Below, one piece after another: positions 6,315 through 58,421 of a DNA stretch of 64,000 nt. Below the pieces are notes generated by a model. That model was not told the DNA's origin and did no database searches. It was given only the letters and a program-made list of their open reading frames with translations. The stretch comes from Dehalococcoidia bacterium. GTDB taxonomy: Bacteria > Chloroflexota > Dehalococcoidia > Bin125. How positions within the stretch are numbered: the stretch's first letter is position 1; the number at the start of each line of letters is the position of its first letter. The translations under genes and the position numbers were made by a program. The stretch lies in contig CBDCDO010000001.1 in the NCBI GenBank assembly GCA_965215375.1, positions 893,567 to 957,566 of the forward strand, in the 5' to 3' direction.

Positions 6315-6321
6315 CCCGTCG

Positions 6322-6636: not shown

Positions 6637-7250
6637 GAGGACGCCTCGGAATCTGAGGCGCTCGTGACGATCGGAGGATCGACCACGTCAACCGGATCTG
6701 TGCTTCCGTCGCCATCGAGTTCCATCTGAAGCGACGCAGCGTGGACGGCGACGTCTTCGTCGTCCTGTCGCGCAAGCGCGATCGCGCCCACGAGCGCCGC
6801 CGTGAGCAGCACCGCGCCGATCTCAAACGGGAGGATGTAATGCTTAATCAAACTCTCGCCGATCAGCCGTGCCTGATCGGTCAGCGCCGCCTCTCGGACT
6901 GCGCCCCAATCGGTATCCACCGCGACCCACATCGTCGCAATCAAGACCATTCCCGCAACGATCCCCGCCGGCACTGCCGCGCGCGTTTGCGAGTTATCCC
7001 GCTCCGCCCGCGGAGTCAGCATGATCGCGAACAGCATCAACACCGAGATCGCGCCGACGTAGATCAGGACTTGTACCACGGCGATGAAGTCGGCCGAGAG
7101 CGTCAGATACAGCCCGGCGATGCCGAGCATTGACAGCACCAACCAAACCACCGCATGGATCAGGTTGCGACTGATCATGATCATCGACGCGCCACCGATC
7201 GTCATCGCAGCGAGCGACCAGAAGGCGAGATGGAAGCCGAAATCACTCAT
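6633..7250 (-). CDS. nuoJ: NADH-quinone oxidoreductase subunit J (with acidic C-terminal tail)
   Basis: NuoJ/ND6-like membrane protein; 4-nt overlap with nuoK. Confidence 0.85.
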   Translation of the reverse strand: MSDFGFHLAFWSLAAMTIGGASMIMISRNLIHAVVWLVLSMLGIAGLYLTLSADFIAVVQVLIYVGAISVLMLFAIMLTPRAERDNSQTRAAVPAGIVAGMVLIATMWVAVDTDWGAVREAALTDQARLIGESLIKHYILPFEIGAVLLTAALVGAIALARQDDEDVAVHAASLQMELDGDGSTDPVDVVDPPIVTSASDSEASS

Positions 7251-19455: not shown

Positions 19456-20397
19456 TTACGGTCCTGTCGCGTCTCCGCCGGCGGTCGACGGAGCTCGGCC
19501 ATGCCGACCTAACGAGCGGTCCAGCAGCGGTACGTTTAGCCGGTCGCCCCAACGTCGCGTGTTCAACAGCCTGGTCAACTCTCTCTCCAGCTCGGTCCTC
19601 GAAAGCGGCGACGTCAACATCCCTCCTGCTGCCACGGTGATATGACCCGTCTCCTCCGACACCACCACAGCGATCGCATCCGTTTCTTCAGAAACGGTCA
19701 GCGCGGCCCGGTGTCGAGTACCGAGATGCACTCCTGACCTTCCGCTGCCAGAACCGCGAACACCGAACTCGGCAGCCGGCGTGGGAATGAACACCCCCGC
19801 CGCGACGACCTCCGACGGTCGAAGCAGCACCGCGCCGTCGTGCAGCGGCGACCCGCGCCAGAAGATGCTCTCCAACAGCTCAAACGTTGGTTCCGCACCG
19901 AGCCGAACGCCCGAGTCCGCGAGCTCCTCCAGGCCCGTATTGCGCTCGAAGACAAACAATCCACCTACGCGCTTCTCCGACATCTGGCCCGCGGTCAACG
20001 CCATTAGCGGAATCAGCATCTGATACGGCTGTCGCAGACTGCCCCAATTCCGCATTCCACCAGCGCGACCAACATGCTCGAACGCCCGTCGGAACTCGGG
20101 CTGAAACACCAACAACACCACAATCAACAACACCGCGAGCGCATTCTCAACGATCCAATCCAGGACAATCGAGTCAATCAAGCGGCCGATAATCAGAATC
20201 GCCAACACGACTAGGACCATGCCGCGAATCACCGACATCGCCGTCGTCCCACGCAACAGACGCAGACCCGCATAGAAGACCACCGTGATCACGGTCACCT
20301 CAAGTGCGTTCATCCAACTGAAATCACCAAACGTGATCTCAATGTCGGTGATCAGATCGCCCACGCCGACAGCCTCAGTTCCGCGAGCCCCAAACAA
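19456..20397 (-). CDS. cdaA: diadenylate cyclase CdaA (c-di-AMP synthase), with C-terminal extension
   Basis: Three N-terminal TM helices plus a DisA_N domain (GAVLLRPSE...HLGTRHRAALTVSEETDAIAVVVSEETGHITV). Confidence 0.8.
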   Translation of the reverse strand: MFGARGTEAVGVGDLITDIEITFGDFSWMNALEVTVITVVFYAGLRLLRGTTAMSVIRGMVLVVLAILIIGRLIDSIVLDWIVENALAVLLIVVLLVFQPEFRRAFEHVGRAGGMRNWGSLRQPYQMLIPLMALTAGQMSEKRVGGLFVFERNTGLEELADSGVRLGAEPTFELLESIFWRGSPLHDGAVLLRPSEVVAAGVFIPTPAAEFGVRGSGSGRSGVHLGTRHRAALTVSEETDAIAVVVSEETGHITVAAGGMLTSPLSRTELERELTRLLNTRRWGDRLNVPLLDRSLGRHGRAPSTAGGDATGP

Positions 20398-20459
20398 CCA
20401 TCATGCGAACCATCGTGCCAACATCGGCGCCCACCGGCGCCCACCGGCGGCGAGCATTA

Positions 20460-20486
20460 GGTAAACGTCACCGAAAGTGACACAGG
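20460..20486 (-). terminator. possible terminator hairpin after argF
   Basis: Minus strand forms a GUGUCAC-UUUCG-GUGACGU hairpin followed by UUUACC, between the argF stop (20518) and the cdaA start. Confidence 0.3.
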
Positions 20487-20517
20487 GCAATGTTAAGCGA
20501 AAGGCCGCCTACTCACC

Positions 20518-21432
20518 TTACGCGTCGAACATCCACCCCAACAGCGCCTGCTGCGCGTGCAGCCGATTCTCCGCCTGATCCAACACCACTGACTGCGGAC
20601 CGTCGAGCACATCATCGGTGATTTCCTCGCCCCGATGCGCAGGCAAGCAGTGCATCACCAGCGCATCTGGGGACGCGCTCGCGAGCAGACTCGCGTTCAC
20701 CTGATAGTCAGCGAACGCCTCCAGTCGGACGCGCGCCTCTGCTTCCTGTCCCATCGACGTCCAGGTGTCCGTGTACACCACATCCGCGCCGCTCACCGCT
20801 TCCGCTGGATCGTTCGAGGTCCGCACCGAACCACCAGCCATATCGCCACGCTTGGTCGCTTCAACCAGACTCCCAGAATCGAGCTCATACCCCTCAGGCG
20901 CTGCAACTCGGACGTGCATGCCTTCACCTGCCGCCGCGATGATCAACGACCGAGCCACATTGTTGCCGTCGCCGACATACGCAAGCGTCCGACCGCTCGT
21001 GCCGCCGTGCTCGCGGATCGTCAGCATGTCCGCAAGCGCCTGACATGGATGCTCCCAGTCGCTCAGCGCATTCACAATCGGCACACCCGCCGCCGCCGCC
21101 AGACGGTCAAGATTGTCCTGGTCAAACGTCCGACAAACAATCAGGTCGCAGTACCGACCGGCGACACCACCCACGTCCTCGGGCGACTCGCGCTCACCAA
21201 GCCCCACTTCAGGCGGCGACAGATACAGCGGCCGACCTCCAAGATTCGAGACCGCCAGCTCAAACGACACCCGAGTCCGCAGCGACGGCTTCTGGAAAAT
21301 CAGCAGCGCCACCTTCCCCGCAAGCTCCGTACCACCAGGACGACCCCGCCGCTGTGCCACCTGCGCACGGTCAAGCACCGTCGCAATCTCATCAACCGCC
21401 AGATCACCAATCGTCAACACAGAACGGGTCAT
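20518..21432 (-). CDS. argF: ornithine carbamoyltransferase
   Basis: Motifs SLRTR (carbamoyl-phosphate), HPCQALAD and [10 protein letters not shown]. Confidence 0.85.
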
Positions 21433-21866: not shown

Positions 21867-22355
21867 ATGCCTCCAAACACCACAGCCGATACGTTTGACA
21901 CACCCACCCCACTCACCCCATCCAGACCCATGCCCATCAGCCTCGAAATCCGCCCGCCCCGACCACCAACCAGTGTCGCATCCGACCGTCGGCACTCGCT
22001 CACCCGACTCCGACACGCCTCCGGCTGGCTCCCCGCTGGCGCATCAATCATCCTCGCCCTGACCGCGATGCTCGTGCTCATCGAGCAACACTCCGCCTCC
22101 GCGCCGTCCCCGACCGTTCGCCAGTCAGCCCCGCCGACAGAGGCCCGCGACACCCGCATCGATATCAACACCGCGACCGCCACAGAGCTCCAGACCCTGC
22201 CAGGAATTGGCACATCGCGAGCCCAAGCGATCATCCGTCTCCGAGCCCAACAACCCTTCCGCTCGCTCGCCGAGCTCACCGACCGCGGAGTCCTCACGGC
22301 CACGGAAGTCCGCAGAATCTCCGAACTTGCAACGGCTTATGTCACCCTCGATTAG
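21867..22355 (+). CDS. comEA: competence protein ComEA (helix-hairpin-helix DNA-binding)
   Basis: TM helix plus C-terminal DINTATATELQTLPGIGTSRAQAIIRLR HhH motif. Confidence 0.8.
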   Translation: MPPNTTADTFDTPTPLTPSRPMPISLEIRPPRPPTSVASDRRHSLTRLRHASGWLPAGASIILALTAMLVLIEQHSASAPSPTVRQSAPPTEARDTRIDINTATATELQTLPGIGTSRAQAIIRLRAQQPFRSLAELTDRGVLTATEVRRISELATAYVTLD

Positions 22356-24903
22356 CCCAACGAGGCTCCTGCATCACGCCCGCAGATGGCCCAACCTGCC
22401 TCGACCGTCCTACCACGCACCACTCCTCCACTGGTCACTTGCATTGACCATCGGAGCCGCACTCTCACTCACCGACTCCCAACCATGGATCGTGGCCGCA
22501 GCATGCGCCGTGGTCACCCTATTCGCCGTCACCTCCGCAGCAGGCATGAGCGCACGCACGTCGCTGCGCCGACTCAACCTCACACTCATCCTGCTCACTC
22601 CCATCATGATCGGCATCGGCTTCTGGCGAGCGGAAGCCACACAGCTCGAACCAGAGCGCCTCGGCTGGACCGAACTCAGCGGACAAACCGTCCACCTGAC
22701 CGGCGTCGTCATCGCCGATCCCGAGCTCCGCAGCACCGGCCTCCGCTTGCTCCTCGACGCAGAGTCAATCACGCTCGGCGACGAACACATCAAGATCGAC
22801 GACCAGATCCTGCTCAATATCCCCGAGCCGCTCGCAGTCGAATACGGCGATCGCGTCTCTGTGGAAACCCAGCTCACTCCGACCCTGCCCGCCACCGACG
22901 ACTACCTGCAGTGGCTCGCCGATCAGCGCATCGCCGCAAGTGGACTCGCCCGCTCCGGCAGCCTGGACATCATCGACCAGGCGGACATCCCATGGTGGCA
23001 ATCACTCGCCGCTAATGCCCGCCGAGAACTCAACCACAGCCTCAGAAGCGCGCTGCCGCCGCCACTCTCGGGCATCGCCCAAGGAATGATCACCGGCCGC
23101 CGAGACGCCATCGATCCCGAGCTCCGACAGGATCTCAACGACACCTCCCTCTCGCACCTCATCGTCATCTCTGGCAGCAATCTCACCCTGATCACGACGC
23201 TCGTCATGGCTGCGTCAGCCTGGCTGATCGGCCGACGCCCAGCCGCAATCCTGGCCATCCTCGCCGCGCTCTCCTACGGAACCCTGATCGGTCCCGACCC
23301 GCCAGTCCAGCGCGCCATGTGGATGGCGATCGTCTTCGCCACCGCGCATCTCTTGGGCCGAGGCGCATCCGCCCTCTACGCCATCGTCGCCACGATCGCG
23401 CTCATGGTCGCGATTGAGCCGCACATCATGCTCGACCTCTCGTTCCAGCTCACCGTGGCCGGCACGCTCGGCATCATCCTGCTCATGCCATCGCTCTACC
23501 AAGACTTCCTCAGCGGACAGAGCGGCATCATCGGCTCCCTCAAAGAGGTCGCCGTGGTCACGCTCGTCGCCACGATCGCCACGATGCCACTGATCATCCT
23601 CCATTTCGGACGCTCCGCCCTGATCGGCATCCCCGCCAACGTCCTCGTCGCGCCCCTCTTCCCCTGGATGCTGCTTGGCTCGGCCGCAACCGCGGTGCTC
23701 GGCATAATCTCGGAAAGCCTCGCCTCTGCACTCGGATGGTTCCTTTCCTGGCTCCCACTCCGATGGCTCTACCTCATTGCCGTGGAAGGAGCACAACTGC
23801 CAGGAGCCGGCGACCCCGTCCGAGGATTCGGACACCTCCACCTCCTGCTGATCTACGCAGCAATGCTGCTCGCCTCATGGCGACCGTATCGCGAGCGAAT
23901 AGCCCGCTGGACCCGAGCCCATCCCGTCACCGACCAATCCGCTTCGCAGCGATTCCCACACCTCAGAAACCCACTAAACCAAGTCGGACTCGACTTCATC
24001 CCCAATCTCCGTGCCCACCTCAGCCCGATGCTCCTCAGCGGCATCGGAGCCGCCGTCGCTGGCGCCCTCTGGCTGTCGGCGTGCAGTCCATCTTCTCCGA
24101 CCCTCAGCGTCCACTTCATCGATGTCGGACAAGGCGACGCCGCCCTCATCGTCACACCCGACGATCACACCATCCTGATCGACACCGGTGAGCGCTCCGC
24201 CGACATCCTCGCCGCGCTCCGAACTCACTTGCCAGACAACACCCGCAAGATCGACTTCGTCGTGATCACACATCCACAGTCCGATCACGGAGAAGCCCTC
24301 TGGGCAATCCTCGACGACTACGACATCGACCAAGTGCTGCTCAGTGCGTACGTCGAGACCACACCCTTCGGCCAGCGACTCGTCGAACACCTCAACCACC
24401 AAAAGATCGACACAATCGAAGCGCAACCAGGTCAACAGATCGTGTTCGACGGCGAGACCCCGCTCACCCTCGACATCCTCTGGCCACCAACCGATCGCCT
24501 CACTCCCGAGCAGCTCGCAGACCCAAACGCCGCCTCAATCGTGCTTCGCGCTCGATACGGCGATGCGGCCTTCCTCTTCACCGGCGACATCAACGTTGAG
24601 CAAGAGCTCGAACTCGTGCGCGCGCCCTGTCCCGGCTCCTCGGAACCGTGCGAGCTCCGTGCCGACGTCCTCAAGGTCGCGCATCAAGGCAGCCGATACT
24701 CCTCCGCCATGCGCTTCCTCGAATCCGTCCGACCCTCCCTCGCAATCCTCAGTGCCAGCGCCGGCAATCCATACGGTCACCCGCACGTAGAAGTCCTTCA
24801 ATCGCTCCGTCACGTCGGATCAAGGCCGCTCCTGACCGCGGAGCACGGCGACATCACGGCTACGACCGACGGCAACACCATCGCGCTCACGACTGACCGA
24901 TGA
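22339..24903 (+). CDS. comEC: DNA internalization competence protein ComEC/Rec2 with C-terminal metallo-beta-lactamase domain
   Basis: Polytopic competence domain, then HFIDVGQGDA...ITHPQSDHGEA...HQGSRYSS...HPH MBL motifs. The track ORF starts earlier (22207), overlapping comEA. Confidence 0.85.
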   Translation: MSPSISPTRLLHHARRWPNLPRPSYHAPLLHWSLALTIGAALSLTDSQPWIVAAACAVVTLFAVTSAAGMSARTSLRRLNLTLILLTPIMIGIGFWRAEATQLEPERLGWTELSGQTVHLTGVVIADPELRSTGLRLLLDAESITLGDEHIKIDDQILLNIPEPLAVEYGDRVSVETQLTPTLPATDDYLQWLADQRIAASGLARSGSLDIIDQADIPWWQSLAANARRELNHSLRSALPPPLSGIAQGMITGRRDAIDPELRQDLNDTSLSHLIVISGSNLTLITTLVMAASAWLIGRRPAAILAILAALSYGTLIGPDPPVQRAMWMAIVFATAHLLGRGASALYAIVATIALMVAIEPHIMLDLSFQLTVAGTLGIILLMPSLYQDFLSGQSGIIGSLKEVAVVTLVATIATMPLIILHFGRSALIGIPANVLVAPLFPWMLLGSAATAVLGIISESLASALGWFLSWLPLRWLYLIAVEGAQLPGAGDPVRGFGHLHLLLIYAAMLLASWRPYRERIARWTRAHPVTDQSASQRFPHLRNPLNQVGLDFIPNLRAHLSPMLLSGIGAAVAGALWLSACSPSSPTLSVHFIDVGQGDAALIVTPDDHTILIDTGERSADILAALRTHLPDNTRKIDFVVITHPQSDHGEALWAILDDYDIDQVLLSAYVETTPFGQRLVEHLNHQKIDTIEAQPGQQIVFDGETPLTLDILWPPTDRLTPEQLADPNAASIVLRARYGDAAFLFTGDINVEQELELVRAPCPGSSEPCELRADVLKVAHQGSRYSSAMRFLESVRPSLAILSASAGNPYGHPHVEVLQSLRHVGSRPLLTAEHGDITATTDGNTIALTTDR

Positions 24904-25022: not shown

Positions 25023-25121
25023 AATCACCTGCTGCACAAAGCACTCGGAACGTCCTAGACTGCGCAACGTAACGGCGCGCCTACGCCAATGTCATGCGCT
25101 GTGCCCAGAAAGGATGCCCCG

Positions 25122-26207
25122 ATGAAAGCTGCAGTCTTCCACGGACCAAACCAAGACCTCACGATCGAAGACGTCGACGTTTCCAAACCCGGCCCGCGAG
25201 AGGTGCTCGTCAAGACCGCCGCTTCGGGCGTCTGCCACTCCGACCTCCACTTCGTCGAGGGACTCTACCCATTCCAGGCGCCTGGCATCCTCGGACACGA
25301 AGCCGCAGGCGTCGTCGAGGAAGTCGGCGATCTCGTTCAGCAGTTCAAAGCTGGCGACCACGTGATCATGTGCCTCTCCGTCTTCTGCGGCAACTGCTCC
25401 TACTGCCTCAGCGGCCGACCCGCCCTCTGCCGAAGCCCAGAGACCCAGCGCCGCCCCGACGAAGACCCGCGCCTCTCCTGGAACGGCAACCCAGTCGCCC
25501 AGTTCGCCAACCTCTCGACCTACGCCGAGTACACACTCGTCCACGAGAACGCGCTCGTCTACGTTGACGACGAAATGCCGCTCGAGCAAGCAGCCCTAAT
25601 CGGTTGCGGCGTGATGACCGGCGCCGGCGCCGCGCTCAACACCGCCAAGGTCCACCACGGCAGCACCGTCGCCGTCTTCGGAGCCGGTGGCGTCGGACTC
25701 TCCGCGATCCAAGGTGCCCGAATCGCTGGCGCAAAGCAGATCATCGCCGTCGACCTCCACGAGCACAAGCTCGCCCTCGCCCGCGAGCTCGGCGCCACTC
25801 ACTCGGTCGACGCCTCCACAGGAGACCCCGTCGCCCAAATCCGCGACATGACCGAGGGTGAAGGCGTCGACTTCTCCTTCGAGGCGATCGGCCTCAAGAC
25901 CGTCGCCGAGCAGTGCTTCGCCGCAATCAAGCGCGGCGGCGTCGCCACAATCATCGGCATGGTCCCGCTCGGACAGAAACTCGAAATCCCCGCTCACGAA
26001 CTCCTTTCCGAAAAGGTGCTCCAGGGCTCCAGCATGGGCAGCAACCGCTTCCGCACCGACATGCCCAACCTGGTCGAGTACTACCGACAGGGCCGTCTCA
26101 TGCTCGACGAAATGGTCACCATCACCGCACCGCTCGAGGACATCAACGAAGCCTTCCGAGCCATGAAAGCCGGAGAAGTCGCCCGAACCGTCCTCACCAG
26201 CTTCTAA
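25122..26207 (+). CDS. zinc-dependent alcohol dehydrogenase (MDR family)
   Basis: MKAAVFHGPNQDL...GVCHSDLH...GHEAAGVVEEVG...CGNCSYCLSGRPALC...VFGAGGVGLSA. Confidence 0.85.
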   Translation: MKAAVFHGPNQDLTIEDVDVSKPGPREVLVKTAASGVCHSDLHFVEGLYPFQAPGILGHEAAGVVEEVGDLVQQFKAGDHVIMCLSVFCGNCSYCLSGRPALCRSPETQRRPDEDPRLSWNGNPVAQFANLSTYAEYTLVHENALVYVDDEMPLEQAALIGCGVMTGAGAALNTAKVHHGSTVAVFGAGGVGLSAIQGARIAGAKQIIAVDLHEHKLALARELGATHSVDASTGDPVAQIRDMTEGEGVDFSFEAIGLKTVAEQCFAAIKRGGVATIIGMVPLGQKLEIPAHELLSEKVLQGSSMGSNRFRTDMPNLVEYYRQGRLMLDEMVTITAPLEDINEAFRAMKAGEVARTVLTSF

Positions 26208-26558: not shown

Positions 26559-27191
26559 CTACGAACCCGTCGTCAGCTCACGAGCCACCGACAGCAACGC
26601 TTCCAGCGCCGTCGGATTCGGCAACGCCGCACCGTACTGATGCACCGCCACCCGCATCCATTTGCCCTGCGGCACAATCTCAAACTGACCGCTCGACCCT
26701 TCTCGCAACAGACCGAGCACCCGCCGATTGACCCGATCATTCCGATCCAGCCGACGCGCCGCCTCAACCGCTGCGCTGTCCGTAGCGTCTGACGCCTGCC
26801 ACTCAAACGTCCGCACCGGACCGAGCTCCTGCTCCGACCGCGACGGCATCGCTCGGAGCGCCGCTCCCCAATCGGCCGACCAGTCCTCGCCCAGCTTCTC
26901 CCGCTCCAACAGCAAATGAGCGCCCACCGCCCGCAACCGACCGCTGTGCGCGGCTCCCTGACCCTCAATCCGACTCAGCAGCGCATATTCAATTTCAGCA
27001 TCCGATACATCCACGGCGGCGACCAGCCGCGCCCCGCCCACAACCACACCCGAGCGCGACAACTCCCGAAACGTCTCCTCCGACGCCGCAGTCGCCGGCA
27101 CCGAATACCGACCCAGCGAGTCAATCAGCGACTCCGTCGCCGCACGATCCGCCCCTCGTCGCAGTCTTCGCCTCAAGCGTCGCAATATCAT
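26559..27191 (-). CDS. hypothetical protein (210 aa)
   Basis: ORF with non-skewed composition; no motif recognised. Ends 4 nt after tRNA-Ser. Confidence 0.45.
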   Translation of the reverse strand: MILRRLRRRLRRGADRAATESLIDSLGRYSVPATAASEETFRELSRSGVVVGGARLVAAVDVSDAEIEYALLSRIEGQGAAHSGRLRAVGAHLLLEREKLGEDWSADWGAALRAMPSRSEQELGPVRTFEWQASDATDSAAVEAARRLDRNDRVNRRVLGLLREGSSGQFEIVPQGKWMRVAVHQYGAALPNPTALEALLSVARELTTGS

Positions 27192-31173: not shown

Positions 31174-31647
31174 ATGTCGCATTTCCTCCTCCGCCAAGCC
31201 GCCAAGGTGATCGCCGGCTCCGCCGGACCCCAGATCGCCTCACAAATCGCCCAACGACTGACCACACCCGCAACCCGCGACGAAGATCGTCGGAAATTCC
31301 TCATCTGGCTCGCCGGACCATTCAAGCAATCGAACCCGCAGGCATACGATCAACTCTGGCCACGCCTCCACAACAACGACGAAGTGATCAACGCCCTCAC
31401 CGGCGTGTTCCTCGAGCTCCAGTCCGCAGGCCCAAGTGCGACGACCAACTGGTTCAGCCAACTCGCGGAATCCGATCAACAACACTTCGACGAGCTCATC
31501 CTCGCAATCCAGCCAAAACAACCCGACACCCAGCGGCTCATGAAGCAAGCCTCCAAAGAGGCGGAATCAACCTTCCGAGGCGCCGCACGATTCCTCGGTC
31601 GCACCTATCGCAAAACGAGTCGTGAAGCACGCAACAGAAAGCGCTGA
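31174..31647 (+). CDS. hypothetical protein (157 aa)
   Basis: Internal Met start MSHFLLRQAAK...; no recognised motif. Confidence 0.4.
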   Translation: MSHFLLRQAAKVIAGSAGPQIASQIAQRLTTPATRDEDRRKFLIWLAGPFKQSNPQAYDQLWPRLHNNDEVINALTGVFLELQSAGPSATTNWFSQLAESDQQHFDELILAIQPKQPDTQRLMKQASKEAESTFRGAARFLGRTYRKTSREARNRKR

Positions 31648-31651
31648 CCAG

Positions 31652-32146
31652 ATGCCTATGATCGACCACATCACCGACGAGCAGACCGACCTGATCAACG
31701 GCGCGAAAGTCTTCTTCGTCGCCTCCGCCGACCCCACCATGGGCGACGGACCAGACGGCCAAGGCGCCGTCAACCTCTCCCCCAAAGGCGCCGCCGACCT
31801 CCAAATCATCGACCGCCACACCCTCGCCTACTTCGACTATCGAGGCAGCGGAAACGAAACCGCCCGACACACCGCCGCCGGCGGACCGATCACGGTGATG
31901 GTCACCTCATTCGACGAAGACGCCGCCATCGTCCGCCTCTACGGTCACGCCGTTGCCAAGCCGCTCGAAGAATCCGTCCTCGCCGAGCAAGCAGAAAAGC
32001 TCCGCGCCGTCGAAATGCCCACACCCGAGCGCCAAGTCATCGAAATCAGCGTCGAGAAAACCCAAACCTCCTGCGGCTACGGAGTACCCGTCTACAAGTA
32101 CCAAGGAGACCGGTCCCAAAAGCAAAGAGGCCGCCGCTACAAGTAA
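31652..32146 (+). CDS. pyridoxamine 5'-phosphate oxidase-family FMN/F420-binding protein
   Basis: KVFFVASADPTMGDGPDGQGAVNLSPKG...IVRLYGHA split-barrel pattern. Confidence 0.6.
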   Translation: MPMIDHITDEQTDLINGAKVFFVASADPTMGDGPDGQGAVNLSPKGAADLQIIDRHTLAYFDYRGSGNETARHTAAGGPITVMVTSFDEDAAIVRLYGHAVAKPLEESVLAEQAEKLRAVEMPTPERQVIEISVEKTQTSCGYGVPVYKYQGDRSQKQRGRRYK

Positions 32147-32390: not shown

Positions 32391-33216
32391 ACCCAGCCAA
32401 CCGATCCAGCTCCGGAACCACCTCATCCGCCCCAGCATGAGGCAGACGGAAGATGCACCGATCCACACCCATCCGCTCATACTCCGCGATCCCATCCTCG
32501 ACCGCGCCGAACACATTGATCGAGATCTCGTCAAAGTCCCGACCAGCCTCGTGCGCCCGCGACTGGATGTCCTGAATCCCCCGCTCGACGAACCCAGGCG
32601 CCGTGATGTTCGGCAGCCAACCGTCCGCCCAGTCAACCACTCGCTGACGAGCCCACTTGCTACCCGCGCCGATCAACACCGGCGGATGCGGCGTCTGCGT
32701 CGGCTTGGGAATCACCTCGGTCAACGGAATGTCCACGAACTCCGAGTGGAACTCGGACTCCTCCGTTGTCCACATCTCCTTCATCGCCGCAATCCGCTCC
32801 GTCGTGACCTTCCAGCGATCCTGGTAATTCACACCGAGCGGCTCCATCTCTTCGGCCAGCCAGCCCGCACCGATCCCAAAATCGAACCGACCTCCGGAAA
32901 TCATGTCCAGCGACGCAATCTGCTTGGCCAACGCGATCGGCTCATGCTCGGTCACCAGACAAATCCCAGTGCCCAGCCGAATCTCCGAGGTCGCACCCGC
33001 CGCCGCAGCCAGCGCCACAAACGGATCATGAATCCGCCGATACTCAATCGGCAATGAACCGTCCTCGCTGCGCGGGAACCGTGTCTCCCGATTGACCGGC
33101 ATGTGGACATGCTCGGGCACAAAGAGCGACTCGAACCCGCGCTCTTCCGCCGCGACCGCAAGCTCCACAGGGTCCATGGCCATGTCCGTCGCGAAAATAA
33201 ACACACCAAACTTCAT
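32380..33216 (-). CDS. LLM-class (luciferase-like) F420/flavin-dependent oxidoreductase
   Basis: MKFGVFIFATDMAMDPVELAVAAEERGFESLFVPEHVHMP...GIGAGW pattern typical of the TIM-barrel LLM family. Confidence 0.8.
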   Translation of the reverse strand: MKFGVFIFATDMAMDPVELAVAAEERGFESLFVPEHVHMPVNRETRFPRSEDGSLPIEYRRIHDPFVALAAAAGATSEIRLGTGICLVTEHEPIALAKQIASLDMISGGRFDFGIGAGWLAEEMEPLGVNYQDRWKVTTERIAAMKEMWTTEESEFHSEFVDIPLTEVIPKPTQTPHPPVLIGAGSKWARQRVVDWADGWLPNITAPGFVERGIQDIQSRAHEAGRDFDEISINVFGAVEDGIAEYERMGVDRCIFRLPHAGADEVVPELDRLAGLIG

Positions 33217-33285
33217 CGTCAGAACCTTTCTGTCTGTTCAGATACCCACAGCCTACGACCTCCTGCCGACGTCTACCCTGCCAGA

Positions 33286-34230
33286 ATGCAACATCACACG
33301 CTCAACCCGCCGACGCCGCCAAATCGCGTCCCGATGGTGCTCGACACCGACACCGCCAATGAAATCGACGACCAGTTCGCCGTCGTCCACGCGCTCCTGT
33401 CCCAAGACCGACTCCAACTCGAAGCAATCTACGCCGTCCCCTTCGCCCGACTCAGCGCTCACCAGGGCCATTCCCCCGCCGCCGGCGTCGCCGAGTCCGA
33501 AGCGGAAATCCACCGACTGCTCGATCGCCTCAATGTCGGCGACCGCAGCCGCGTCTTCCGCGGTGCCGACCAGTTCCTCTCCGACGACAAGCACGCGGTC
33601 CAGAACGCCGCCTCAGACGACCTCATCCGACGAGCCCTCGAGCCTCGCGATGAACCGCTCTGGGTCGCCGCAATCGGTGCCCTCACGAACGTCGCTTCAG
33701 CGCTCCACGAAGCACCGGAAATCGCCGCGCGAATCCGCATCGTCTGGCTCGGCGGACAAGCCCAACACGCGGTCGACGCCCGAGAGTTCAACCTCTACCA
33801 AGACCCCATCGCCGCCCGCATCGTCTTCGATAGCGGCGCCCCACTCGTGCACATCCCCTGCTACGGAGCCGCGTCGCACCTGCTCACCACCACCGCCGAG
33901 CTCGATGCCTACGTTCGCCCCCAAGGCGACATCGGCGAGTACCTGGCGGACATCTTCCGCGATCACAACGACCAGCACCCCGGCCGCTCGAAAGAGATCT
34001 GGGACCTCTCCGCCACGGGTTACCTGATCGACGACAACTGGGTCCCCAAGCGCAGCCTCGAGCGCCCCTCACTTTCTCAGGATATGCGCTGGATCCGCCA
34101 ACCCGACGACACTCCGTCAGCACCCTTCGCCGAAGCCCACTACATCCGCCGAGACCCCATTTTCCAAGACCTCTTCGCCAAACTCGGCGAGTTTCAATCC
34201 GGGAACCGCAACGCAGGATTCGCAACCTAA
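33286..34230 (+). CDS. nucleoside hydrolase (inosine-uridine preferring family)
   Basis: N-terminal VLDTDTANEIDDQFAV (DxDxxxDD Ca-binding motif). The track ORF starts earlier (33103) and overlaps the LLM gene on the other strand. Confidence 0.75.
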   Translation: MQHHTLNPPTPPNRVPMVLDTDTANEIDDQFAVVHALLSQDRLQLEAIYAVPFARLSAHQGHSPAAGVAESEAEIHRLLDRLNVGDRSRVFRGADQFLSDDKHAVQNAASDDLIRRALEPRDEPLWVAAIGALTNVASALHEAPEIAARIRIVWLGGQAQHAVDAREFNLYQDPIAARIVFDSGAPLVHIPCYGAASHLLTTTAELDAYVRPQGDIGEYLADIFRDHNDQHPGRSKEIWDLSATGYLIDDNWVPKRSLERPSLSQDMRWIRQPDDTPSAPFAEAHYIRRDPIFQDLFAKLGEFQSGNRNAGFAT

Positions 34231-34236
34231 CGCCGC

Positions 34237-35295
34237 TCAGAGCCCCACCGTCACCGGACGCGTCATCCCGCCGAATGTCGGCATCCAGCACGAATGCTTG
34301 CCCGGCCCTCCAGCGACGATGATGTGAATCTCCTCAGGCCGATCCGAGATCGGCAGCCACTCATCCGAGCTATGCGTCGGCAACACGCCGCCCGCCATAC
34401 GGATGTTCACCGACTCCAGAAATTCCTCGCTCAGCTTGCTCGCCGGATACCGAGCGTTCTCCCACAGATACTCCTGCACCGACTCTCGCGTCCAACCCTC
34501 CGACGCGACCGTCTCTGCGTGTTCTGGACCAAACGCCAGCACAGGTTCGCCCTTGCCCAGAATGTTGTTCGATCCTGCCTGACCCATCGCCCCAGCGACC
34601 GTCTGCAGGATCCCCGCCGCCGTGTTACTGCCGTGATCCTGAATGTTGTGCGGACCCTCGCACGCCCAGGTCGTCACACAGCTGTCCTCTGCATTGAGCC
34701 CGCGCGTCGTCTGGAACGGCGGCCACGGCGACGCATCCTCACGCTCGGTTGCGCAAAATGCGAACTTGGCCGGCGTGCCCTGCGTCGCGCGATCGCCCCG
34801 ACCAGGTGTCGCTCCGGCGACATTCAGTTGCACCAGTCGCACCGCTCGCCCGATCGTCGCGTTGGACGGAAATGTCGGCCCGAAACAGCCCGATCCGCCG
34901 TGAATGCCAGCCGCTCGCGCCGCCGGACCCGACGCCAGGACAAACACCGCGCACGGATGCGTCGTCGCATTGATTCCGTCGAGATTGAACGGCGGCTGCG
35001 CAATCGCTTCGACCGCCGCCAGCACGATCGGGAACTGCTGCGGCCGACAACCCGCCATCACCGCGTTAATCGCGACCGCCTGCACCGTCGCCTCGCCTTG
35101 ACGAGGCGACAACACACCCAACACCTCCATCGGATCGCGACCCGCAGCCTCGACCATCGCCGCAACGCGCTCCGCCGTCGGCGGAATCAGCGGCAGGCCG
35201 TCGGACCACCCACGACGTTGGCACTCCTGCGAGAACTCGAACGCGTCGGCCGGCAGCGAGAATCGCTCGGCCTCTCGACCTCGAGCCGCCGTCAC
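34237..35295 (-). CDS. conserved hypothetical protein (352 aa), translationally coupled to the upstream selenoprotein gene
   Basis: GTG start overlaps the TGA stop of the upstream gene (GTGA at 35292-35295). Balanced composition; contains GWSDGLPLIPPT...AINAVMAGCRPQQFPIVLAAVEAIA. No family recognised. Confidence 0.55.
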   Translation of the reverse strand: MTAARGREAERFSLPADAFEFSQECQRRGWSDGLPLIPPTAERVAAMVEAAGRDPMEVLGVLSPRQGEATVQAVAINAVMAGCRPQQFPIVLAAVEAIAQPPFNLDGINATTHPCAVFVLASGPAARAAGIHGGSGCFGPTFPSNATIGRAVRLVQLNVAGATPGRGDRATQGTPAKFAFCATEREDASPWPPFQTTRGLNAEDSCVTTWACEGPHNIQDHGSNTAAGILQTVAGAMGQAGSNNILGKGEPVLAFGPEHAETVASEGWTRESVQEYLWENARYPASKLSEEFLESVNIRMAGGVLPTHSSDEWLPISDRPEEIHIIVAGGPGKHSCWMPTFGGMTRPVTVGL

Positions 35296-35837
35296 GATGT
35301 CCCCGCCTCACCAAGCAGCGCCGCCTCAAGACGATCAACTACACCATCATCGACCCGTCCGCGCACGCGCTCAGGTCGCAGCCCACCAAGCGGATGCGGC
35401 ACAATCAAGCGGTCCAACTCGGGCAACCCGCGCTGCTCCGCTTCGAGTTGCAGCAAATCCGTAAACGCCGACGTCCCAACCGTCACCGTCGGAATTCCCA
35501 TCTCTTCAAACAGCACTGAGGCGTGGACACTCCACGTCGTGCAGCTTCCTCAATCGCAGCTCCCAATGAGCAGGAAATCGGCCCCGTTCCGCAGCGCGTC
35601 AATCGTCGAGTCTGACGGCGGCCCACCAACCGGCTTGCTGCCAACGACCACGTCGCCCAACCGATGCCGTTCGCCCAACCGCTCGACCATCGTTTCCATC
35701 AGCAAACGGGCATTCGCCTTCCGATTCTCCAGAATCCCAGGTCGAAGCCCGTCCAACGACGTCGGTCGAGGCGCCGCCGTCGCCTCATGAATCGCCACAT
35801 GAGCCAACGGACTCAAAATCTCAATCGTCTCCGGCAT
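35292..35837 (-). CDS. UGSC-type selenoprotein with in-frame TGA (Sec) at 35550-35552
   Basis: Track ORFs 35550..35885 and 35292..35516 are in the same frame (offset 258 nt) and separated only by TGA. Read-through gives ...ADFLLIGSCD-U-GSCTTWSVHASVLFEEMGIPTV... A GC-rich hairpin sits 11 nt after the UGA. Best RBS is GGAGG-6 nt-ATG at 35837. Confidence 0.6.
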
Positions 35838-35872
35838 CGCAATCCTCCAGTCACCTGCCATCTCCAAACAGC

Positions 35873-37537
35873 CTAAGGCTTCCAATCCTCCGGCTCGACG
35901 ACGATGATCTCGATGTACCCCAACACACGACGTTCCTCCAGGGTGGCGCCCGGGTCACCTTGGGTACCGGCTGGGCATCGTGTCGTCACCTCAACTAGCA
36001 CCCGTCCAAGCTGGGTAGGAGTGCCCCGCAACAGCATCTCGGCTCCGATGATGCCGCCATCATCGTCGTATGTCGTGATACTCGTAGGCGCAATCAACCC
36101 ATTCCAAGCTTCAACGAGTTGATCTTCATTCGACAGATTACCACTGAAGTAGTGACCCTGTTGCTGGTAAGATTCGTCCGGGCTCGGCCGCCCTTGGATC
36201 CAACAAAAGGCATCCGAAAACTCTTGTGTTGATGTCAACACTACCCGATCGTACCAGTGGTACGGACGACCAAGTTCCACGAACACCGTACGGATCAGGT
36301 CATCCGGCCCCACAGTTGTCCTGTCTGACGGATCCGACGGTAAATTGGCAAACAGTTGCTTTTGTATCTGGACTGTGCGCTCCGAAGGTGGTTCGAACGA
36401 TATTGGATTCCCGGCATAGACGAAGCGAAAGTTGGCATTCCGACGCGCTTCAGCGGACCGAAAGTGAGGAATGTAGCGTTCCCAAACCGCCAACATCGTC
36501 GCGACAAACTCCGGACCGAAAAACTCATCAGGATCGGTGATAGCCCGTACGTAGTCTACCAGTAAATCAGCAAATGTGTCTGATTGATCAGCTTCGATAA
36601 CTCGACCCTCTACCGGAATCATCGCTCGCGACTCAACGCCATTGATGAACACTGGAACGTCCGATGCTCGATCTCCAAACAGGTCAACGTTGATCAAGTC
36701 GAACAACCGATTGATCTGATACCAATACGTCCCCCAATCAGGGCGCCAAGTCGATTCCACATCGACGACGTAGTCGGGCAGGAAGTAGTCATTGACATGC
36801 CTGGCCCAGTCCACAGCGTCGCCAAAGTGGTGACCATCAACGCCAGTTAGAGGCCCTGAAGTAATGGACAGCCCCAGCCGAGGTTTGTAGTATATTACCG
36901 ACGAGTTCCAAATGCCGTGTCCTGTGGTTTCTAGGAATAGCACGGTACGAGGTGTATCATCACCTCTATTTCCCGTGCCGTCGTAGCCAGTGTGATACCA
37001 GCCTTGTTCACCATGGATGATCACTTTTCGGTCAAGAGCGTAGATGATAAAATCAGGATCAGTGACCCGCAGGTCTGTTGCGAAAAGCTCTGCTCTTGAT
37101 AGGCACCCTGGTGTTCCAGATGAAATACCAAGCGCATCGAGCTCAATCTGAAACTCCGCAGAGCAGTCGGCGAGGAAGCTCATGCGATCTTGATACACGT
37201 CGATGGTGAGGAATGACCACTGATTTGGTCGACCTTGCCAGAGCAGTGTCACCTCTCCAAGATCGAGCAATGCACCATGCTCGAAACGTTGACCTGGGAT
37301 GGCGAAGCCTTCACCGCGCTCCGCGGCGTCGGCGAAACAGTCCGTAATCGCATCTCGTGATGCGCTGCCAGGGATTTCTTCGGCATACTTCAGCCATTGT
37401 GTTCCGTTATAGCACCATGCTGGGAGGTCGGCGCGATTTGCCTCAACTGTGGCGTTCCAAGCGAAGAGGCTTGCGCTGATCGCGAACGCGAGGATGGCGA
37501 ATCCAACCCAAGGTCGATGTGCGCGCCTACGTCTCAT
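35873..37537 (-). CDS. secreted / membrane-anchored hypothetical protein (~555 aa), lower GC than its neighbours
   Basis: N-terminal MRRRRAHRPWVGFAILAFAISASLFAWNA signal/anchor, many Trp/Tyr, no recognised catalytic motif. Local GC is ~52% versus ~65% in the flanks. The track ORF extends to 37579. Confidence 0.55.
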   Translation of the reverse strand: MRRRRAHRPWVGFAILAFAISASLFAWNATVEANRADLPAWCYNGTQWLKYAEEIPGSASRDAITDCFADAAERGEGFAIPGQRFEHGALLDLGEVTLLWQGRPNQWSFLTIDVYQDRMSFLADCSAEFQIELDALGISSGTPGCLSRAELFATDLRVTDPDFIIYALDRKVIIHGEQGWYHTGYDGTGNRGDDTPRTVLFLETTGHGIWNSSVIYYKPRLGLSITSGPLTGVDGHHFGDAVDWARHVNDYFLPDYVVDVESTWRPDWGTYWYQINRLFDLINVDLFGDRASDVPVFINGVESRAMIPVEGRVIEADQSDTFADLLVDYVRAITDPDEFFGPEFVATMLAVWERYIPHFRSAEARRNANFRFVYAGNPISFEPPSERTVQIQKQLFANLPSDPSDRTTVGPDDLIRTVFVELGRPYHWYDRVVLTSTQEFSDAFCWIQGRPSPDESYQQQGHYFSGNLSNEDQLVEAWNGLIAPTSITTYDDDGGIIGAEMLLRGTPTQLGRVLVEVTTRCPAGTQGDPGATLEERRVLGYIEIIVVEPEDWKP

Positions 37538-37562
37538 ATAGTGCACAAGTGGACAAGCATCC

Positions 37563-37814
37563 TTACTCCAGATACCCATAGACGAGCTCCCGTAACTCGT
37601 CCATGTCCGGGAACCGACCCATCGCCGCCTTGCTAAACACGAGTTCGCCGTTCACCGACCACTCGAACAGGCCCTTCGTGTCCGGCACCAACCGCACGTC
37701 GCTGACGAGATGCTGGATGTCCGCCATCAGCTCGCCAAGCATCCACGACGTGCGCGGCCAGTACCCACAGTCGGCGCAGTAGACCACCTCTATCGCGATT
37801 TGCGCTTCTGACAT
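37563..37814 (-). CDS. Rdx-family (SelW/SelT/SelH-like) thioredoxin-fold protein, Cys form (CxxC)
   Basis: IAIEVVYCADCGYWPRTSWMLGELM matches the I-x-YC-x-x-C-x-W-x-R-x-x-W pattern of the Rdx family, where selenoprotein homologues carry CxxU. 83 aa. Confidence 0.65.
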   Translation of the reverse strand: MSEAQIAIEVVYCADCGYWPRTSWMLGELMADIQHLVSDVRLVPDTKGLFEWSVNGELVFSKAAMGRFPDMDELRELVYGYLE

Positions 37815-37823
37815 CGTGCGCCC

Positions 37824-38834
37824 CTATCCCCCCAGATACTGTTCCAGCCGCCTGCCGACCTCCGACGGCGTGCCCGACGGTAGTGGAATCATCTGCAAGT
37901 CAGCACCAGCGTCCGACCGAGACTGCAACTGCTCCGAGACCGTTTCAATCGGCCCGATCACCTGAATCTCCCGAACCATGTGCTCCGAGAACGCCATTAG
38001 CGCGGCCTCAGAGTCTCGGTCGGCCCAGGCTGTGCGCGATTCCTTGATCTCAGACTCAAAGCCCGACCGCGAAAGCATCTGCCAGTAGAACGAACCCATC
38101 CGGTTCGTGTAATGAAACAGTGGCTGTCGAGCATTGCGCCACGTCTGCTCGTCATCTCCTTCGCCGGTCACGTACACATTCGTGAACGGCGCCACCGTGA
38201 CTGAGTCCTCGGGCCGACCAGCATCGCGCGACGCCCCCGCAAGCTGTCGCTTCAGCGACTCAAACGACCGCTTCGGCCAGTGAATCGGATAGATCCCGTC
38301 CGCGATCTCACCAGTCTGCTGAATTGACCGAGGCGTAATCGCCGCAATCCAGACCGGAATGTCTTCCCGCACCGGCTCATATCCAAGCAGACGGAAACCC
38401 CGCTGGAGCGTGTAAATCTCGCCCTCATACATCAGCCGTTGTCCACTGAGGAGCATCTTGATGATCTCCGTGTACTCACGGATGCGTCGCAGCGGTCGAT
38501 CGAAACCGACCCCGTGGAATCCCTCAATTACCAAGTTCCCCGATGATCCCAGCCCGCAGACCATGCGCCCGCCCGAGATCGTCTCGAGCGTTGCAAACTC
38601 CTGCGCGATCACCGCCGGTGTCCGCGAGAACGTGTTGAGAATCCCTGTCCCAATCTGGATCTTCTCCGTGTTCGCAGCAATCACCGTCAGCCACGGCAAC
38701 ACCGAGTGCCCCCAGGCCTCGCCCGTCGACACCATCTCGTAACCGAGGTCCTCAGCGATTTTCACCTTCTCCAAGGTGTCTCGCCAGTTCGTGTCGAATC
38801 CTGCCAAAATGCCCAGTCGCATTGTCGTGCTCAT
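37824..38834 (-). CDS. LLM-class F420/flavin-dependent oxidoreductase
   Basis: RLGILAGFDTNWRDTLEKVKIAEDLGYEMVSTGEAWGHSVLPWLTV...GLGSSG TIM-barrel LLM pattern. Confidence 0.8.
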   Translation of the reverse strand: MSTTMRLGILAGFDTNWRDTLEKVKIAEDLGYEMVSTGEAWGHSVLPWLTVIAANTEKIQIGTGILNTFSRTPAVIAQEFATLETISGGRMVCGLGSSGNLVIEGFHGVGFDRPLRRIREYTEIIKMLLSGQRLMYEGEIYTLQRGFRLLGYEPVREDIPVWIAAITPRSIQQTGEIADGIYPIHWPKRSFESLKRQLAGASRDAGRPEDSVTVAPFTNVYVTGEGDDEQTWRNARQPLFHYTNRMGSFYWQMLSRSGFESEIKESRTAWADRDSEAALMAFSEHMVREIQVIGPIETVSEQLQSRSDAGADLQMIPLPSGTPSEVGRRLEQYLGG

Positions 38835-38844
38835 CGGTTCGCTC

Positions 38845-39306
38845 CTATTCGATTTCGACGATCATTTCGATTTCCACAGCCATGCCCACCGGCAACGACT
38901 GCATGCCGACCGCGGAACGCGCGTGACGGCCACTCTCGCCAAACAGCTCGACCAACAAGTCGGACGCGCCATTGGCGACGCCAGGGTGGTTACCAAACTC
39001 CGGCGTGCAGTTGACCATGCAGAGCAACTTCACAATCCGCGAGACGCGGTCCAGCGAGCCGATCTCGGCCCGCAGCGAGCCCAGCAATTGCACCATCACC
39101 GCCCGAGCAGCATCGTAGCCCGCGTCGACATCCATGTCGGCGCCCAGCTTGCCTCGAATCAACTCGCCGTCCTTGAACGGACCGTGTCCCGAGAGAAACA
39201 CGAGATTACCCGTCCGCACCGCAGGCACATAGTTGGCCAGCGGCGGATTCGTCGAAAGATCGAGCCCCATCTCCAACGCCTTCGCGTCGGCGTTATGTGC
39301 AGACAT
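38845..39306 (-). CDS. RidA/YjgF/RutC family protein
   Basis: VRTGNLVFLSGHGP...NCTPEFGNHPGVANGASDLLVELFGESGRHARSAVGMQSLPVGMAVEIEMIVE. Confidence 0.8.
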   Translation of the reverse strand: MSAHNADAKALEMGLDLSTNPPLANYVPAVRTGNLVFLSGHGPFKDGELIRGKLGADMDVDAGYDAARAVMVQLLGSLRAEIGSLDRVSRIVKLLCMVNCTPEFGNHPGVANGASDLLVELFGESGRHARSAVGMQSLPVGMAVEIEMIVEIE

Positions 39307-53322: not shown

Positions 53323-53952
53323 CTACGTCCGACTGCGCACCCGACGAACACCAATCCCAGCGATCGCCGCTGCACCAAGAGCAATCAGCAGACCAACCAG
53401 GCCCGCCGACACGCCACTGTCGCTAGCAAGACCACCAGAACCCGTCGCCGGATACCCATTGTCAGCCATCGAGTCATCCATGTGGCCGTCGTCCATCGAG
53501 TCCTCGTCCATCATGGAGTCATCGTCCGACATCTCGCCGTCCTCCTCCATCATGGTTTCGTCGTCTTCGGACATCTCACCGTCATCGCCCTCGTCCATCA
53601 TGGAGTCGTCCTCCATGGCCTTGGGCGTAACCGTGACGGCCGACTGTCCGCCACCTGTTGACGAGACCTCAGAGTCGGCGACGGCACCGTTGATTGAGAA
53701 CACAACGTCCTCAGCCTCATCGCGGTCAACGTCGATGTACCACGAACCATCATTAGCAACCATCGCAGATGCGATGAGCGTCAGCTCATCATCATTCATG
53801 TGGACACCAATAGTGTCACCGGCAGTAGCACCATGTCCGTAGAACCTATGCGGAGGCTCTTGCTGCGCGCTGGCAAGACTCAACGTTGCAATCGCAACAG
53901 CAAGCCCGAGTACCAACGCTCCAACCCTCGACATCAGTCTGTGCTGTTTCAT
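53323..53952 (-). CDS. secreted acidic Met/Asp/Glu-rich protein with C-terminal hydrophobic anchor and basic tail
   Basis: Signal peptide, then the DDSMMDEGDDGEMSEDDETMMEEDGEMSDDDSMMDEDSMDDGHMDDSMADNG low-complexity block, then YPATGSGG followed by a TM helix and RRVRSRT. Confidence 0.6.
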   Translation of the reverse strand: MKQHRLMSRVGALVLGLAVAIATLSLASAQQEPPHRFYGHGATAGDTIGVHMNDDELTLIASAMVANDGSWYIDVDRDEAEDVVFSINGAVADSEVSSTGGGQSAVTVTPKAMEDDSMMDEGDDGEMSEDDETMMEEDGEMSDDDSMMDEDSMDDGHMDDSMADNGYPATGSGGLASDSGVSAGLVGLLIALGAAAIAGIGVRRVRSRT

Positions 53953-57878: not shown

Positions 57879-58421
57879 CTAGTTACAGCAAGAGGAAAGC
57901 GTCAGCGTTCCGATCAGCGCGACAAACTCGAACGCCAAACCCGTCGACGCCACCTGAAACGCACGGGTGCGCTTCTGTAAGACGGACGCGTTGAGTGAGG
58001 CTCCATGGATGAGGGCAGCCAAGCTTTGGGCCTTGAGCGTCTTGGTTTCTGGTACCTCCCATTTCACATACCAATCCCAATTCGATCCTGCTGCCCAGTC
58101 TCTCGGCCATAATGCATAGATTCCGGCAGCTACTACAGTGAGCGCTCCGACGATGACGAGGATGGCTGAAATGCCCCTCGCCGAAAGATCGATGTCGAGA
58201 CTTCCAGCAACGAGCAACGTGCCGACTCCGACTATGGCCCACCCCACGGTCGCAACAACTCTCGAGTCGAGCGCCGAAAAACTCTGCTGGTCGGAGGCTA
58301 GATCTCGCTGTGCCTCGCTGAGGAGGTAATCCAGTTCGCGCTCACCGAGTGAATCGGTCCACTCCGTGAGTTTGGTAGGTAAGGAAAGGCCATTCACAAG
58401 ACAAACTCGATCTTCGACCAC
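57879..58421 (-). CDS. hypothetical 2-TM membrane protein, low GC
   Basis: ~45-aa cytoplasmic N-terminus, two adjacent TM helices, C-terminal coil ending SSCCN. Overlaps the ATP-grasp gene end by 28 nt. Confidence 0.4.
   Translation of the reverse strand: MVEDRVCLVNGLSLPTKLTEWTDSLGERELDYLLSEAQRDLASDQQSFSALDSRVVATVGWAIVGVGTLLVAGSLDIDLSARGISAILVIVGALTVVAAGIYALWPRDWAAGSNWDWYVKWEVPETKTLKAQSLAALIHGASLNASVLQKRTRAFQVASTGLAFEFVALIGTLTLSSCCN

Follow-up and report, generated by a model that had tools for sequence, protein, structure and literature searches.

The subject of this analysis is the gene of a 568-amino-acid (568-aa) protein in a 64,000-nucleotide stretch of the genome of a Dehalococcoidia bacterium (GenBank assembly GCA_965215375.1, contig CBDCDO010000001.1, positions 893,567 to 957,566). 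The whole stretch is referred to as the window; the protein is termed X568, or X where homologues in the same slot are included. In the reading favoured here, to which a probability of about 0.55 is given, X568 currently fills a single-gene cassette slot that is resident in, and specific to, its clade and lies between the Rdx and UGSC genes of a redox operon. The content of this slot would be repeatedly replaced by homologous recombination among relatives and selected as a surface protein. The reading draws on the observed anatomy of the locus, the distribution of the family, the pattern of its alleles, a deviation in composition and a signal of recombination. The features of the locus are listed below; GC3 denotes guanine plus cytosine (GC) content at third codon positions.

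35873..37579, minus strand: X568 coding sequence, the low-GC3 cassette gene; intact open reading frame (ORF) of 568 aa with an ATG start
37563..37814, minus strand: Rdx gene (SelW/T/H-like, CxxC form), the upstream recombination anchor; Pfam Rdx, E = 1.4e-17
35292..35837, minus strand: UGSC selenoprotein gene, the downstream recombination anchor; both halves match Pfam UGSC
34237..39306, minus strand: tight gene string RidA-LLM(F420)-Rdx-X568-UGSC-p352; ORFs with Pfam and NCBIfam matches
35780..37360, minus strand: recently exchanged tract, 93–99% identical in nucleotides to locus L001, with flanks at 75–87%; sliding identity

The history of X differs from that of its flanks in both directions. 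Comparison loci (L-numbers) are contigs from metagenomes or metagenome-assembled genomes (MAGs), and family proteins are given P-numbers. Among L001, L003 and L088, the LLM and p352 proteins are 98–99% identical, whereas the X proteins between them are 30–46% identical; for L001 and L003, synonymous divergence (dS) is 0.1–0.3 in the flanks, while X is saturated and has a nonsynonymous divergence (dN) of 0.47. The window and L001 show the reverse, with a flank dS of 0.86–1.55 (RidA, LLM, Rdx and p352) or 0.58 (UGSC) against 0.174 in the body of X (codons 75–568; range for X 0.17–0.20). Because the dS of X lies so far below that of the flanks, the sharing of this allele between the window and L001 requires recent horizontal exchange. 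The pairs L001/L002 and L003/L004 likewise combine a flank dS of 0.06–0.22 with an X dS of 0.002–0.005.

Recombination breakpoints are not confined to the flanks. The first ~40 codons of X568, upstream of the exchanged tract, are nearer to the L088 allele than to that of L001, so the gene is a mosaic with breakpoints inside it too. Divergence between L001 and L003 is elevated from the 3' half of Rdx onwards and subsides within the first half of UGSC, and in this pair Rdx has a dS of 0.99 compared with 0.18 for LLM. The dN/dS ratio is 0.18 within an allele class, which indicates purifying selection on a protein that is not decaying, and 0.18–0.20 between classes. Every X copy examined is an intact ORF, except the frameshifted P0014. 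A diversity-generating retroelement was considered as a source of the variation and rejected: the window holds no template-like repeat, and the divergence between alleles is even over all domains (34–36% identity).

Fast evolution in place was weighed as an explanation of these divergences, with X a vertically inherited resident whose third positions drift under weak selection and low expression. It would fit the dN/dS of X (0.18–0.29), which is several-fold above that of its neighbours (0.02–0.10), and the conservation of the slot across the clade. However, it predicts an X dS at least equal to that of the flanks, and the values found are 0.17 against 0.86–1.55 for the window and L001, and 0.002–0.005 against 0.06–0.22 within the pairs L001/L002 and L003/L004. 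It also predicts that X would have gained the strand skew of its host, and the skew of X is about zero even in strongly skewed hosts. Furthermore, an accelerated rate alone cannot give 30–46% identity beside flanks that are 98–99% identical, and this explanation is considered highly improbable.

The same pattern might in principle be produced by assembly or binning, if contigs were chimeric or strain variants had been collapsed. Every locus used for comparison lies on a MAG or metagenome contig, L001 and L002 come from one sample, and L003, L004, L088 and L089 also share one. Nevertheless, independent samples show the slot with the same structure, as do chromosome-scale assemblies (OZ253471.1, OY730488.1 and contigs of 2.4–4.9 Mb). 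The window is an independent sequence whose protein is absent from the searched collection, and every copy has intact reading frames, with its junctions located at plausible gene boundaries. An artefact is the least credible of the explanations weighed.

The family of X568 is new, very small and unannotated. A word-indexed search of 5.8 billion clusters returned two relatives only (90% and 46% identity), and an exhaustive hidden Markov model search of 1.84 billion representatives returned 32 clusters, about 17 of them full length and 25–47% identical to one another. All members with a readable context lie directly downstream of Rdx and all but two (L085 and L086) lie between Rdx and UGSC, the relatives sharing the syntenic block RidA-LLM-Rdx-X-UGSC-p352. 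The carriers are uncultured Dehalococcoidia. One relative comes from sample SB0665, the other bins of which are sponge-associated Poribacteria, and the X-bearing clade is probably sponge-associated.

Two related genomes lack X. In L007 the slot is empty, with 12 nucleotides (nt) and no gene between the Rdx stop codon and the UGSC ATG. In L006 (OZ253471.1) the slot contains five copies of a 107-bp tandem repeat (6138–6683) and no X homologue; a 118-aa acidic ORF in the same slot (6753–7109) has no significant family match and is unrelated to X. In the tree of flank proteins both genomes are nested among X-bearing lineages, which implies loss, and L008 and L092, the two lineages at its base, have an X with an intact HExxH motif.

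In the metagenome contigs L085 (4938–6557) and L086 (4887–6527) from the Joint Genome Institute (JGI), the X homologue still follows Rdx. There LLM is truncated and other genes replace UGSC and p352 downstream, including one of the Hypoth_Ymh family (PF09509). The linkage of Rdx and X thus outlasts rearrangement of the remaining operon.

A preliminary description of this DNA, made from its letters, had proposed that X568 is a horizontally acquired insertion into an existing operon. In its strict form, a single recent insertion from a donor of lower GC content into the Rdx-UGSC operon, the proposal can point to the outlying GC3 and skew of the gene, to the empty Rdx-UGSC junction in L007 and to a window allele that is far nearer to that of L001 than the flanks are. 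Against it, each of the other related lineages, the basal L008 and L092 among them, has a homologue in the slot, the genomes without X are nested and point to loss, and the family is essentially confined to this clade and slot. No relatives were found in phage, plasmid or IMG/VR collections, so that an origin from a mobile element is not supported either. The junctions of X568 carry no integrase, tRNA gene or att-like repeats (the tRNA genes of the window lie only at 24.9 and 26.5 kb), and the gene region shares no repeat longer than 39 nt with the rest of the window.

Since slot occupancy is shared across lineages, a one-off event is largely refuted and is judged unlikely. What survives of the earlier proposal is the compositional outlier, the empty slot and the low dS between the window and L001. 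The preliminary description had named the presence of an orthologue in this place in every relative as the finding that would count against acquisition, and such orthologues are nearly universal, only L007 and L006 lacking them. Of the hallmarks of an exchanged genomic islet, the locus shows deviant composition, a history incongruent with its flanks, and presence or absence with an empty site; mobility machinery and hallmarks of integration were not seen.

The composition of X568 is clearly atypical. In 400-nt sliding windows the GC content is 0.51–0.54 across 36000–37400, compared with 0.60–0.68 on both sides; the drop that had been described is therefore real, and the figures given for it (52% against 65%) are slightly overstated, the gene as a whole having a GC content of 0.538 and the window 0.620. 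The GC3 of X568 (0.555) is the lowest of 44 window genes, the other 43 having a mean of 0.748 and a standard deviation of 0.055 (z = -3.5). These genes encode at least 150 aa and passed a filter on amino-acid composition, so that their selection was independent of GC3. First and second codon positions are ordinary (GC1, z = -1.2; GC2, z = -0.6), and as the drop is confined to third positions, the deviation is synonymous and does not reflect amino-acid content.

The skew of G against C at third positions (GC3 skew) provides a second, independent measure. On the plus strand it is +0.04 in X568 and -0.37 to -0.57 in the immediate neighbours. Across the genomes compared, X has a GC3 that is 0.15–0.25 below that of its flanks in every case, and its GC3 skew is about zero whether that of the host is +0.5 to +0.7, about zero, or -0.3 to -0.5.

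Several observations accompany these figures. The genes of the window have a plus-strand GC3 skew of -0.3 to -0.69 with the same sign on both strands (strong examples lie at 22207–24903, 25089–26207, 31622–32146 and 33103–34230); the bias therefore tracks the chromosome or replication strand and not the direction of transcription. Host skew varies by genome, being about zero in L001, L003 and L088, +0.5 to +0.7 (coding sense) in L008, and -0.3 to -0.5 in L090. A Karlin-type codon-bias distance was tried and discarded as a discriminator: the value for X568 (0.400) is not separated from the mean (0.411–0.430), because strand-dependent use of G and C at third positions in the host raises the distance of every gene from the pooled reference.

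Three further minus-strand genes of the window have a low GC3 (0.62–0.64). The host strand skew is absent in two of them (54047–56155 and 57879–58421) and much weakened in the third (53323–53952; plus-strand -0.11). The starts of 54047–56155 (MRLSHLAAVATIVALLGAMFVAMGS) and 53323–53952 (MKQHRLMSRVGALVLGLAVAIATLS) resemble signal peptides, and the three may be further flexible or exchanged envelope genes.

Within the gene string the genes are closely packed, with spacings of 10, 9, -17, 35 and -4 nt from RidA to p352. The final 17 nt of Rdx overlap the start of X568, and 35 nt separate its end from the UGSC start (35837, placed by comparison with L007 and with the gene calls of L001). The earlier placement of X568 between an Rdx-like gene and a selenoprotein gene with overlapping or near-overlapping ends is thus upheld, as is its ORF. 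The UGSC gene has an in-frame TGA at 35552–35550 and reads ...LLIGSCD-UGA-GSCTTW..., a selenocysteine-containing form, while the Rdx that adjoins X568 is the Cys form (YCADCGYW).

No terminator-like sites were found between the genes of the string, where a scan for promoters and terminators gave no more hits than shuffled sequence, and an Rfam scan gave no match in the X568 region. X568 is presumably co-transcribed with the operon. A hairpin, CGUGGA-GUG-UCCACG, begins 17 nt past the UGSC UGA; as a candidate selenocysteine insertion sequence, the hairpin after this codon does not exceed shuffled sequence in stability (z = -0.75).

The protein itself can be divided into an N-terminal hydrophobic segment and three predicted domains, as follows.

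37445..37513, minus strand: signal peptide or signal-anchor helix, residues 23–45, preceded by an Arg-rich n-region; hydropathy and AlphaFold2
36845..37420, minus strand: N-terminal beta-rich ectodomain, residues 54–245, with Cys 56, 81, 139 and 159 and the GWYH motif; AlphaFold2 strands, predicted local distance difference test (pLDDT) mostly 80–95
36305..36844, minus strand: helical zincin-like (SprT/Wss1-like) domain, residues 246–425
36506..36559, minus strand: degenerate active-site motif VDYVRAITDPDEFFGPEF, residues 341–358; aligns with HExxH-x(7-8)-H-G-x-x-F of relatives
35897..36298, minus strand: C-terminal Ig/cadherin-like beta-sandwich, residues 428–561, with conserved Cys459 and Cys535

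Residues 23–45 are the sole segment of X568 with a Kyte-Doolittle hydropathy (19-residue window) above 1.6, and RRRRAHR precedes them. X568 thereby has the positively charged n-region and single h-region near the N-terminus that mark a Sec-exported or type II signal-anchor protein, and it was correctly credited at the outset with such an element and with a richness in Trp (3.2%) and Tyr (3.9%). The motif ISA/S is a possible AxA-like cleavage site. Judged by eye, an N-terminal hydrophobic segment is present in all but one (P0016) of the 13 full-length relatives listed, and AxA-like sites follow it in several. Cysteines 56, 81, 139, 159, 459 and 535 are invariant in full-length family members, which also share several conserved motifs. 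Given the signal or anchor and the six conserved cysteines, X568 is probably extracytoplasmic.

An AlphaFold2 model of the whole protein, built on the family alignment (pLDDT 79, predicted template modelling score 0.69), comprises a helix at residues 24–43, a beta-rich region at 54–245, a helical region at ~252–411 and a beta-sandwich at 428–561. X568 has no match in Pfam, NCBIfam, PHROGs, PADLOC or the sequences of the Protein Data Bank (PDB), profile searches of the PDB with family and domain alignments gave chance-level matches only, and a Foldseek search of the full model against the PDB gave none at E <= 1e-3. For the beta-rich domain, structure searches gave no convincing match. Of the stretch of the protein that had seemed most conserved, GWYH (193–196) is nearly invariant across the family and the remainder is not.

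We read the helical domain as a SprT/Wss1-type zincin whose metal ligands have been lost in the window allele. Three weak lines converge on this reading: relatives carry the motif, profiles match weakly, and the ranking of folds agrees. The earlier statement that the protein has no recognisable catalytic motif holds for the window copy, while relatives have HExxH at the homologous position; L008, for instance, has HELAHIVAGENEGHGGRF in place of VDYVRAITDPDEFFGPEF. HExxH and the downstream His are intact in seven of the 23 family members examined (L008, P0006, P0014, P0015, P0019, P0020 and P0022, in the form HE(L/F/I)(A/G)H...(G/S/A)H) and the ligands are lost in 16, with none of the three left in window X568, P0001 and P0002. 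HExxH...H is also intact in distant relatives that carry LysM domains, and these and the HExxH-bearing members give repeated sub-threshold matches to PF10263 (12.8–16.5 bits, profile positions 62–92).

PF10263 and its related families cover the SprT-like, Wss1 (WLM) and Spartan zincins, and the relatives of X568 resemble these in having (G/S/A)H-G-x-x-F seven to eight residues after HExxH, the typical spacing of the group. As far as sequence can tell, X568 is not a member of PF10263 by motif, third ligand or score. It has VDYVRA where relatives have LHE(L/F/I)(A/G)H, and ...DEFFGPEF where they have ...EGHGGRF (L008) or ...HGHDGRF (P0006), the third-ligand His of the relatives sitting one to two columns before the column of Gly355. 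It gives no match to the profile at E <= 0.1, and no X member reaches the gathering score of 25.6 bits. In addition, known SprT and Wss1 proteins are intracellular proteases of DNA-protein crosslinks, whereas X proteins carry export signals, a beta domain and an Ig-like domain, with LysM in distant relatives.

With 0/3 ligands, window X568 would be a catalytically dead pseudo-protease. Secreted peptidases have given rise to pseudoenzymes elsewhere, in which catalytically dead homologues are retained for binding. X resembles them in that the fold-defining positions (W-x-R-Y-x-P-x-F and the conserved cysteines) and purifying selection persist where the ligands are lost. It differs in that its inactivity is read from sequence and in that apparently intact and dead versions share one slot in sister lineages, which is unusual.

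In another alternative, X would be secreted as an active enzyme, whether a metalloprotease with non-canonical ligands or a redox-linked enzyme, working with the products of Rdx, UGSC and LLM. In favour of this are the tight packing with the 17-nt Rdx overlap, the six conserved cysteines, the zincin-like fold and the HExxH kept in some members. It is nonetheless considered very unlikely. All three zinc ligands are replaced in the window allele, X has an export signal and its operon partners do not, and a fixed-substrate enzyme is not expected to show extreme allelic divergence. Furthermore, the operon exists and works without X in L007 and L006, so that its own function does not depend on the gene.

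The C-terminal domain has structural matches of modest significance to S-layer and adhesin domains. The modules compared were the dystroglycan-type cadherin-like domain, Sap S-layer domains and SraP adhesin modules. X differs from these in having no sequence-level family match and a single module (two in P0004) in place of a long repeat array, and no cell-wall sorting, SLH or other anchoring motif was seen in it.

Two family members depart from the common architecture. P0004 (712 aa; L088/L089, 5001–7139) has a second C-terminal Ig-like module. Its signal region and C-terminal tail (EPDDWKP) resemble those of the window allele, while the bodies are only ~34% identical, which suggests mosaic gene ends. 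P0014 (557 aa, HExxH intact) loses similarity after about residue 448 and continues as an Arg/Pro/Ser-rich tail, like a frameshifted Ig-like domain; either a pseudogene or a mistake of assembly may account for this.

Rapid turnover of a single locus is also expected of anti-phage defence genes and polymorphic toxin-like genes in defence islands. X shares with these fast replacement, presence/absence polymorphism, atypical composition and a protease-derived domain, and a Hypoth_Ymh protein adjoins the X homologue in L085. The Hypoth_Ymh family often occurs in defence or abortive-infection contexts. However, PADLOC-DB v2 contains no family that matches the window allele or P0002 (nor p352) at E <= 1, the export signal and conserved cysteines indicate an extracytoplasmic location, and the catalytic ligands are gone in most alleles. 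X568 is moreover a single gene within a housekeeping-type operon and not part of an island, and no immunity-like small ORF adjoins it. A defence role is accordingly held to be improbable.

In the favoured reading of a refilled cassette slot, the product would be an exported envelope protein, membrane-anchored or secreted, composed of a signal or anchor, a Cys-bearing beta domain, a dead zincin and an Ig/cadherin-like C-terminus. The slot would be old and resident in the Dehalococcoidia clade, and would hold many deeply divergent alleles, each under purifying selection. Homologous recombination anchored in the conserved genes on either side would carry these alleles between strains and across species-level lineages, with some breakpoints inside X. 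The low GC3 and missing strand skew would then be the signature of a circulating allele pool, composition remaining unequilibrated because no allele resides long enough in one chromosome.

As many old alleles are kept and each has recently spread, the diversity is most likely upheld by negative frequency-dependent selection acting on a protein exposed at the cell surface. A role as a cell-surface determinant is proposed on the grounds of the export signal and of the adhesin/S-layer-like module. Candidates for the selective agent are phage, with X as receptor or adsorption target, and recognition of X as a determinant by the host or by neighbouring cells.

A comparable situation is known from hypervariable "metagenomic islands" and surface loci under phage-driven negative frequency-dependent selection, as described by the constant-diversity model. 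Examples are the O-antigen/glycosylation and surface-protein islands of Prochlorococcus, SAR11 and Haloquadratum. The X locus resembles these islands in that close strains are radically different at one locus for an exported or surface product, with atypical GC content, recombination through conserved flanks and many alleles coexisting in one sample. In contrast to the islands, X is one gene of ~1.7 kb in a tight cytoplasmic redox operon and not a multi-gene envelope cluster, its alleles are homologous (one family, 25–47% identity) and not non-homologous gene sets, and its surface exposure and phage role are hypothetical.

Several points weigh against the favoured reading. dN/dS never exceeds 1, positive selection was not detected, and divergence between alleles is too saturated to reveal it. 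All comparison genomes are metagenome assemblies, and consensus collapse might in principle have raised the identity of X within one sample (L001/L002 and L003/L004). The support for export consists of one hydrophobic segment and conserved cysteines, the fold matches are modest in significance, and surface exposure and targeting by phage or host are conjectural. Finally, the reading does not account for a surface-protein gene inside a cytoplasmic redox operon and in translational overlap with it.

Other parts of the window and its relatives provided further observations. The gene p352 (352 aa; 34237–35295, minus strand) follows UGSC, and its product matches no family of Pfam or NCBIfam. The UGSC and p352 pair is conserved (loci L009–L084) in Chloroflexota, Rokubacteria, Binatia, Betaproteobacteria, Acidimicrobiia, haloarchaea and methanogens, often in two to three tandem copies (e.g., in L031, L063 and L068). 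A 210-aa protein without a domain match (26559–27191, minus strand) is 34–36% identical between the window and L001 or L003, compared with 70–91% for its neighbours; its L001 orthologue lies at 20154–20789, and L001 and L003 are 91.5% identical to each other in this protein. This makes it the second gene of the block, after X, that diverges fast or has been replaced.

A further-reaching interpretation, which is put forward tentatively and thought more doubtful than the slot itself, is that the SprT-like-derived, mostly dead family represents a trans-specific balanced polymorphism, its alleles acting as surface marks of strain identity that spread in gene-specific sweeps across species, with a translational coupling to Rdx and UGSC that is functional. 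If this were true, the alleles would be phage receptors or decoys, or a host-recognition tag, and the coupling to Rdx and UGSC might tie the expression of the protein, or the folding of its three disulfides, to redox state.

For annotation, the locus is a warning that a low-GC gene in an operon may be a resident slot fed by an allele pool and not a foreign insertion. The family, which had escaped annotation, would be one in which apparently active and dead versions of a metalloprotease alternate at one locus. With one gene, one slot and conserved anchors on both sides, the locus is a compact and well-delimited example of hypervariation among strains, and of alleles shared across lineages, in uncultured symbionts. 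Selection on such a surface determinant would be measurable from metagenomes, by following allele frequencies over time, across hosts and against phage load.

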